Position numbers and translations under genes: made by a program. The notes beneath the pieces were generated by a model that worked only from the letters and a program-made list of their open reading frames with translations, did no database searches and had not been told where the DNA came from. A stretch of 64,000 nucleotides of DNA, taken from NCBI RefSeq assembly GCF_044647545.1, contig NZ_CP172818.1; one strand, written 5' to 3'. The stretch's first letter is position 1; each line of letters begins with the position of its first letter. This DNA comes from Escherichia coli (lineage in GTDB: Bacteria; Pseudomonadota; Gammaproteobacteria; Enterobacterales; Enterobacteriaceae). This document shows positions 2,623 to 2,639 of this stretch, piece by piece.

Positions 2623-2639
2623 ATTAAGTTAATATTAAG
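2623..2639 (-). promoter_or_regulatory. Candidate PmrA (BasR) box upstream of ugd
   Basis: Minus strand reads CTTAAT-ATTAA-CTTAAT, a perfect match to the PmrA direct-repeat consensus CTTAAT-N5-CTTAAT, about 145 bp upstream of the ugd start. Confidence 0.4.

Follow-up and report, generated by a model that had tools for sequence, protein, structure and literature searches.

A predicted BasR/PmrA box upstream of Escherichia coli ugd, its Salmonella counterpart and ugd alleles that lack it

The direct repeat at positions 2623 to 2639 of the analysed window, a 64-kb stretch of E. coli DNA, is in all likelihood (probability about 0.9) a BasR/PmrA box, at which bound, phosphorylated BasR would substitute for a -35 element and recruit the sigma-70 RNA polymerase. 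The initial annotation, made from the sequence alone, had placed such a box in front of ugd, and this reading is now supported by the published definition of the motif, by orthology with a Salmonella site, by the conservation pattern and by the literature on ugd expression in E. coli. Our analysis establishes the sequence of the box, its statistical uniqueness, its orthology with the Salmonella site and an arrangement of binding site plus -10 hexamer that is shared with arnB and pmrR. The feature as such is already known: the PmrA box of ugd (pmrE) was described in Salmonella between 1999 and 2003, and E. coli ugd is already counted among the BasR targets.

Read directly from the window sequence, positions 2639 to 2623 of the minus strand are CTTAATATTAACTTAAT, that is, CTTAAT-ATTAA-CTTAAT, exactly as the initial annotation had it. 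The direct repeat lies on the ugd coding strand and runs in the direction of ugd transcription. Its distance to the ugd ATG is 143 nt, close to the approximately 145 bp estimated earlier. The box is contained in the 247-nt spacer between gnd and ugd, which is 70% A+T. The Ugd protein encoded in the window is 99% identical to Ugd of Shigella/E. coli and contains the Pfam UDPG_MGDP_dh domains. A 401-nt stretch including the box is 100% identical to the corresponding region of E. coli strain FDAARGOS_497, and the identical box is present in K-12 MG1655 (NC_000913.3, 2099773..2099757). The layout of open reading frames fits the E. coli his / wzz-ugd-gnd / O-antigen / colanic-acid region, in which wzz, ugd and gnd are the genes identified by annotation or comparison. 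The hairpin that follows gnd was read by eye and was not called by a simple terminator scan; its stem and T-run are kept in the cross-species alignments. Coordinates of the main features are collected in Table 1.

Table 1. Features of the gnd-ugd region; positions refer to the window unless another locus is named.
Feature	Position	Strand	Remarks
ugd (pmrE), UDP-glucose 6-dehydrogenase	1313..2479	minus	388-aa ORF; annotated as ugd in matching E. coli genomes
ugd leader	2480..2597	minus	strongly conserved blocks in the alignments: GAAAATCTGAATTGTTTT; GCGTTAAAACTTTTAAC..CTTATCAGGATG..AACATCATGATT
Predicted transcription start of P1	2598..2602	minus	near G2600; placed by the usual distance from the -10 hexamer
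Predicted -10 hexamer of the PmrA-dependent promoter P1	2607..2612	minus	TATTCT; TAnnnT conserved; prediction at sequence level
Gap between box and -10 hexamer	2613..2622	minus	AAATATCAGC; 10 nt, length conserved, sequence not conserved
Predicted PmrA/BasR box	2623..2639	minus	hexamer 2639-2634, spacer ATTAA 2633-2629, hexamer 2628-2623
Terminator-like hairpin of gnd	2670..2700	minus	GGCCCGGCGTATATTATGCCGGG followed by a T-run; read by eye; upstream bound of the ugd promoter region
gnd	2727..4133	minus	468-aa ORF; annotated as gnd in matching E. coli genomes
Upstream region of the box-less ugd allele	3575-3822 of the ETEC1738 locus		strain ETEC1738

The pmra-box is defined as two YTTAAK/XTTAAY hexamers in direct repeat, 5 nt apart (PMC10570014, PMC10927774, PMC2736619), and the 17-mer has exactly this composition, with two hexamers in direct repeat around a 5-nt spacer. 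Both hexamers are CTTAAT, the preferred half-site of PmrA (PMC3973317). Boxes of the same kind are found in the K-12 BasR regulon, namely, in front of arnB (pbgP; CTTAAG-GTTAA-GTTAAT, followed after 10 nt by TAAAAT), pmrR (CTTAAG-GTTCA-CTTAAT, followed after 10 nt by CATACT) and eptA (CTTAAG-GTTGG-CTTAAT, with no clear -10 hexamer at a 10-nt gap). All three share with the ugd box the TTAA-centred hexamers, the 5-nt spacer and the location on the coding strand, and arnB and pmrR also have the 10-nt gap before a -10-like hexamer. However, the arnB (CTTAAG/GTTAAT) as well as the pmrR and eptA (CTTAAG/CTTAAT) boxes are imperfect, whereas the ugd box consists of two perfect CTTAAT hexamers. The pbgP box of Klebsiella pneumoniae belongs to the same regulator family and has the same organization of two hexamers separated by 5 nt, with the -35 element replaced (4S05, PMC10570014, PMC3973317). 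It differs from the ugd box in the second half-site, which is CCTAAG rather than CTTAAT, a substitution for which the isolated DNA-binding domain has an approximately 70-fold weaker affinity (9.3 uM vs 0.13 uM; PMC10570014). The K. pneumoniae box, described as four base pairs downstream of the pho box at -25..-41 (PMC10570014), is also nearer to the -10 element than the 10-nt gap of ugd would place it. The pho box at pstS, bound by PhoB of the same OmpR/PhoB family, is similar in that its direct repeats stand in tandem with a period of 11 bp, overlap the -35 region and bring the activator into contact with sigma-70 region 4. Its recognition sequence and its regulator are different, so the resemblance is one of mechanism and not of membership.

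To assess conservation, we scanned for Ugd proteins in one genome per species, which yielded at least 80 loci, and retrieved the Salmonella and E. fergusonii loci by a protein search followed by collection of the contigs encoding the exact proteins. The exact box is present at about -160 in E. coli, E. albertii, Citrobacter sp. R56, C. youngae CCUG 30791 and Citrobacter sp. Cu233. Among the matches listed, no box was found within 400 nt upstream of ugd in Enterobacter, Kosakonia, Lelliottia, Kluyvera, Pluralibacter or Superficieibacter, nor in Hafnia, Proteus, Dickeya, Pectobacterium or any of the non-enteric genera. The Ugd proteins of the box-less Enterobacter, Kosakonia, Kluyvera and Pluralibacter are 82-85% identical. 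Among the alleles retrieved, the box is confined to those of Escherichia, Citrobacter and Salmonella. Several of the Enterobacter, Kosakonia, Lelliottia, Kluyvera, Pluralibacter and Superficieibacter loci have another motif in common, CTTGACAGT..., at about -110.

An alignment of seven non-redundant taxa (from E. coli, E. albertii, E. fergusonii, two Citrobacter and Salmonella enterica) resolves the constraint on this region. In the two hexamers, 11 of 12 positions are invariant, and the sole change, T to G in E. fergusonii, still falls within YTTAAK. Only one of the five spacer positions is invariant, and none of the next ten, the length of which is nevertheless exactly 10 nt in all seven taxa. 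The following hexamer (TATTCT, TACTCT, TAACCT, TACCCT or TATCGT) is invariant at positions 1, 2 and 6 only. For comparison, 94 of the 251 positions of the whole non-coding alignment are invariant. Selective constraint in the seven-taxon alignment is on the hexamers and not on the spacer or the flanks, a pattern that would be expected of a protein-binding site whose spacing to a sigma-70 -10 element is fixed. The same distribution is seen within the species: in seven promoter variants of E. coli, SNPs affect the 10-nt gap and position 3 of the -10 hexamer and leave the box untouched. Strain DLI.5a has a divergent ugd allele with a glycosyltransferase gene in place of gnd and with different flanks, yet CTTAAT-ATTAT-CTTAAT is kept, so that the box belongs to ugd and not to gnd.

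The Salmonella counterpart of the box links the window to a promoter studied at the bench. All four Salmonella enterica contigs (4/4) carry the exact 17-mer 160 nt before the ATG, counted from the start of the box, as in E. coli. The gnd-ugd-wzz-his context is the same, and so is the 10-nt gap to the TAnnnT hexamer, whereas the -10 hexamer itself is TATCGT in Salmonella and TATTCT in the window. In Salmonella, the CTTAAT repeat is preceded by a perfect PhoP box, TGTTTA-agccc-GGTTTA, which begins 63 nt farther upstream. According to PMC3335776 and PMC2681069 (cf. PMC2736619), the Salmonella ugd promoter contains experimentally verified PmrA, PhoP and RcsB sites, and PMC2681069 puts the verified PhoP and PmrA boxes about 65 bp apart. 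Since the PhoP box 63 nt upstream matches this published distance, the Salmonella repeat can be equated with the published PmrA box, for which PMC2736619, PMC3335776 and PMC2681069 cite Aguirre et al. 2000 and Mouslim & Groisman 2003. The E. coli 17-mer matches that box base for base and is its orthologue; orthology to the bound site is borne out by the sequence identity and the common offset in the four contigs. The tie to the footprinted Salmonella site runs through secondary citations and sequence comparison. A full-text literature search for the exact 17-mer, its 12-mer prefix and the reverse complement matched no paper.

The Salmonella PhoP box lies inside the gnd terminator hairpin, at about 1278-1294 of the Salmonella loci, corresponding to about 2688-2704 of the window. 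At this position, the E. coli window has ATTGAG-gcccg-GCGTAT, i.e. it is devoid of the PhoP box. This difference fits a direct PhoP input to ugd that would operate in Salmonella and not in E. coli.

With a spacer of 70% A+T and with relaxed versions of the motif occurring in the window at the frequency expected by chance, the repeat could be regarded as a functionless accident of AT-rich intergenic DNA. Indeed, there are 6 matches with up to two mismatches vs 5.2 expected, and 7 matches to YTTAAK-N5-YTTAAK with at most one mismatch vs 4.4 expected. The matches of the latter scan, as well as the match with up to two mismatches at 1940, are all located inside open reading frames. Relaxed matches (e.g. 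at 32820, 3508 and 11657) were accordingly rejected as sites, given their chance frequency and, for those of the YTTAAK scan, their intragenic location. Among the motif versions in the window, the exact site alone stands out. CTTAAT-N5-CTTAAT occurs once in 64 kb, counting both strands, in none of 100 dinucleotide-preserving shuffles, and with a composition-based expectation of 0.008 per window and 0.0003 (3e-4) in the 247-nt spacer. AT-richness therefore does not explain the repeat. The initial annotation had described an exact fit to the consensus and had named frequent matches in AT-rich DNA as the outcome that would undermine it; the fit is exact and unique in the window, and such frequent matches were not found. 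In the 91 collected loci, the exact pattern is present 11 times, always 157-160 nt before the ugd start codon and never elsewhere. Conservation of the exact repeat and of its offset in three genera, with divergence of the neighbouring bases, is difficult to reconcile with an accident, and the diverged flanks also contradict a very recent transfer of the whole region. Given this conservation pattern, chance is refuted for practical purposes, and we consider its probability negligible. A second alternative is that the repeat is real but is bound mainly by another regulator, such as QseB or a different protein of the OmpR/PhoB family, or by a nucleoid protein in AT-rich DNA. TTAA-rich direct repeats 11 bp apart are indeed the general format of OmpR/PhoB-family sites; moreover, PmrB-QseB cross-talk occurs in E. 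coli, and QseB is a paralogue of PmrA. The PhoP box consensus is a direct repeat, (T/G)GTTTA-N5-(T/G)GTTTA. The 17-mer does not fit it, nor does it fit the pho box. By contrast, its hexamers are the exact half-site preferred by PmrA (PMC3973317) and match the other boxes of the K-12 BasR regulon, and PmrA is the protein named as bound at Salmonella ugd in PMC3335776, PMC2681069 and PMC2736619. A predominant role of another binder is thus very improbable, and BasR/PmrA is retained as the cognate regulator.

The region downstream of the box has the organization of an activator-dependent promoter. At sequence level, the coding strand carries the box and, downstream of it, a conserved TAnnnT hexamer, and the -35 position is non-consensus. 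The hexamer at that position (2635-2630, with 17-nt spacing from TATTCT) is ATATTA, which matches TTGACA in 2 of 6 positions, as expected of a promoter that depends on an activator. A sigma-70 consensus scan, which requires a partial -35 element, reported no promoter at the box region and only an intragenic site. Because there is no -35 element at the ugd promoter, this null result is expected and is not positive evidence either way. Both the exact -10 hexamer and the point of transcription initiation are predicted from the sequence. Transcription usually starts 6-8 nt after the -10 hexamer, and the predicted P1 start would put the box at about -39 to -23 and give a leader of approximately 121 nt.

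The proposed mechanism combines these predictions with what the literature provides, namely, PmrA binding at Salmonella ugd, replacement of the -35 element, the structural mechanism and PmrA-dependent expression of ugd in E. coli. In response to Fe3+, Al3+ or mild acid sensed by BasS/PmrB, BasR would become phosphorylated and, as a dimer, would place its two winged-helix domains head-to-tail on the two CTTAAT hexamers, which, being 11 bp apart, should lie on one face of the helix. Standing in the place of the -35 element, the bound dimer would contact sigma-70 region 4 as well as the beta/beta' subunits, and the RNA polymerase would then open the weak promoter at TATTCT, 10 nt downstream of the box. 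In pbgP, ugd and pmrCAB, the pmra-box is known to replace or overlap the -35 element; the cryo-EM structure of an activation complex contains the PmrA dimer and the E. coli sigma-70 holoenzyme (PMC10570014). Transcription from near 2600 would proceed through the leader into ugd, and the UDP-glucuronate made by Ugd would be passed to ArnA for the addition of L-Ara4N to lipid A, resulting in resistance to polymyxin and Fe3+.

The leader itself contains additional elements. A candidate second promoter, P2, is seen on the minus strand as TTGACC (2574-2569)-17 nt-TAAAAC (2551-2546), and its TTGAC and GCGTTAAAAC blocks show conservation between genera. P2 might be the counterpart of the RcsB-dependent start known from Salmonella, which, when placed by the position of the PhoP box, would fall approximately 45-60 nt downstream of the predicted P1 start, near candidate P2; P2 could also explain PmrA-independent induction of ugd. 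Just downstream of the predicted -10 hexamer, at 2583-2606 of the minus strand, is the block (T/G)ATAAAGAAA(A/T)TCTGAATTGTTTT. Few other non-coding stretches are as well conserved in Escherichia, Citrobacter and Salmonella as this block, which includes an AGA-N3-TCT inverted repeat and may be a candidate binding site for another regulator, possibly RcsB. The RcsAB box consensus is TaAGaatatTCctA. Inspected by eye, the conserved block GAAAATCTGAATTG fits it poorly, with AGA-N3-TCT instead of N4, and we do not claim an RcsAB box here. Immediately before the ugd Shine-Dalgarno sequence, at about 2492-2502, the minus strand reads TTAAGTTAAT, an inverted copy of the ATTAACTTAA of the box that is kept in all species. 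The complement at that site is ATTAACTTAAT in Citrobacter and Salmonella, i.e. a single CTTAAT half-site in inverted orientation, some 120 nt downstream of the box. A structured RNA element or riboswitch in the leader was also considered and rejected: in an Rfam covariance-model scan of 2300-2800, no family reached threshold, all scores being far below the gathering thresholds and all hits overlapping the gnd terminator.

The regulator is almost universal in the species, with basR found in 5411 of the 5426 complete E. coli genomes. It is encoded outside the window, and in K-12 it is annotated beside eptA, basS and pmrR. Expression data link ugd to it in several settings. When E. coli was shifted to Fe3+ medium, ugd mRNA was measured as that of a PmrA-activated gene beside pbgP and pmrC, with induction kinetics dependent on the pmrB allele present (PMC3140997). 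In iron-adapted E. coli B, ugd is up together with eptA, arnABC, pmrR, waaH and basR (PMC13405929), and in serum-exposed ExPEC it is down together with arn, basRS, ais, yjdB and yibD (PMC4145685). Binding of phosphorylated BasR to the ugd, eptA and arn promoters is given as a general statement in PMC9396075. A 2014 table of regulators per operon in ExPEC lists BasR for arn, yibD and yrbL and none for ugd (PMC4145685). The statement of the initial annotation that ugd is a known PmrA target is supported for E. coli by the Fe3+ experiments (PMC3140997) and the co-variation of ugd with arn, eptA, pmrR and basR.

A third alternative accepts the repeat as a genuine, conserved BasR site but assigns it a small contribution, with RcsB, PhoB or a sigma-70 P2 promoter supplying most ugd transcription and the box serving for fine-tuning. 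In MG1655, a ugd promoter-lacZ fusion was induced more than 10-fold under phosphate depletion, this induction was unchanged in pmrA and pmrB deletion mutants, and expression was approximately 30% lower in phoB/phoR mutants, i.e. partly PhoBR-dependent (preprint 10.1101/2025.08.18.670855). Since the induction persists without pmrA or pmrB, another input drives ugd at least under phosphate depletion. The high conservation of the ugd leader and the presumed location of the RcsB-dependent start past P1, near candidate P2, point in the same direction. However, the preprint covers one condition only, whereas ugd changes along with the core BasR regulon in both iron-adapted E. coli B and serum-exposed ExPEC (PMC13405929, PMC4145685), and in the Fe3+ shift it was followed as a PmrA-activated gene, with kinetics that varied with the pmrB allele (PMC3140997). 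That 11 of the 12 hexamer bases are under purifying selection in different genera also argues for a site that is used. We therefore regard a minor role as unlikely and keep the view of the box as a working BasR site. Nonetheless, ugd is probably served by at least two promoters or inputs, and there may be conditions in which the box is not the dominant one. Such multiple inputs limit the weight of the box in E. coli and leave its identity unchanged.

Not all E. coli strains carry this promoter. The 70-nt box-bearing promoter is found in 3704 of 5426 complete genomes, and 915 of the 5426 (approximately one sixth) have another ugd allele, the product of which is 84% identical to the Ugd of the window. 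In all four sampled strains with this allele (4/4; e.g. ETEC1738 and C012), no site within two mismatches of YTTAAK-N5-YTTAAK was detected upstream of ugd. It is tentatively possible that PmrA control of ugd is not fixed in E. coli and instead travels with the allele, being lost when recombination at the O-antigen locus imports another one. The region directly upstream of the box-less ugd in C012, a broiler isolate (NZ_CP119577.1, 1-214), contains an ISApl1 transposase gene in place of gnd; ISApl1 is the insertion sequence associated with mcr-1 mobilisation. In E. coli HN257 (NZ_CP139803.1), IS1 is inserted inside the box, which reads ...CTTAATATTAACT / IS1 / TATTAACTTAAT... (2530-2545 and 3305-3325 of the locus). 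The insertion is flanked by the 8-bp target duplication TATTAACT and leaves the hexamers about 780 bp apart, so that HN257 can be regarded as a natural knockout of the box.

The PmrA box of ugd is a textbook part of the regulon, and its confirmation adds nothing new in kind. Its value is that of a clean positive control, with exact coordinates, a predicted -10 hexamer and a clear conservation pattern. The parts with forward value are the box-less allele, the IS1-split box and the E. coli promoter devoid of Salmonella's PhoP box, which together represent natural experiments on the wiring of the regulon. ugd provides the UDP-glucuronate needed to modify lipid A with L-Ara4N, and this modification is the basis of chromosomal polymyxin/colistin resistance. 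If the supply of UDP-glucuronate is indeed no longer coupled to BasRS in box-less strains, polymyxin tolerance and the inducible addition of L-Ara4N would differ between E. coli strains according to their serogroup-linked ugd alleles.
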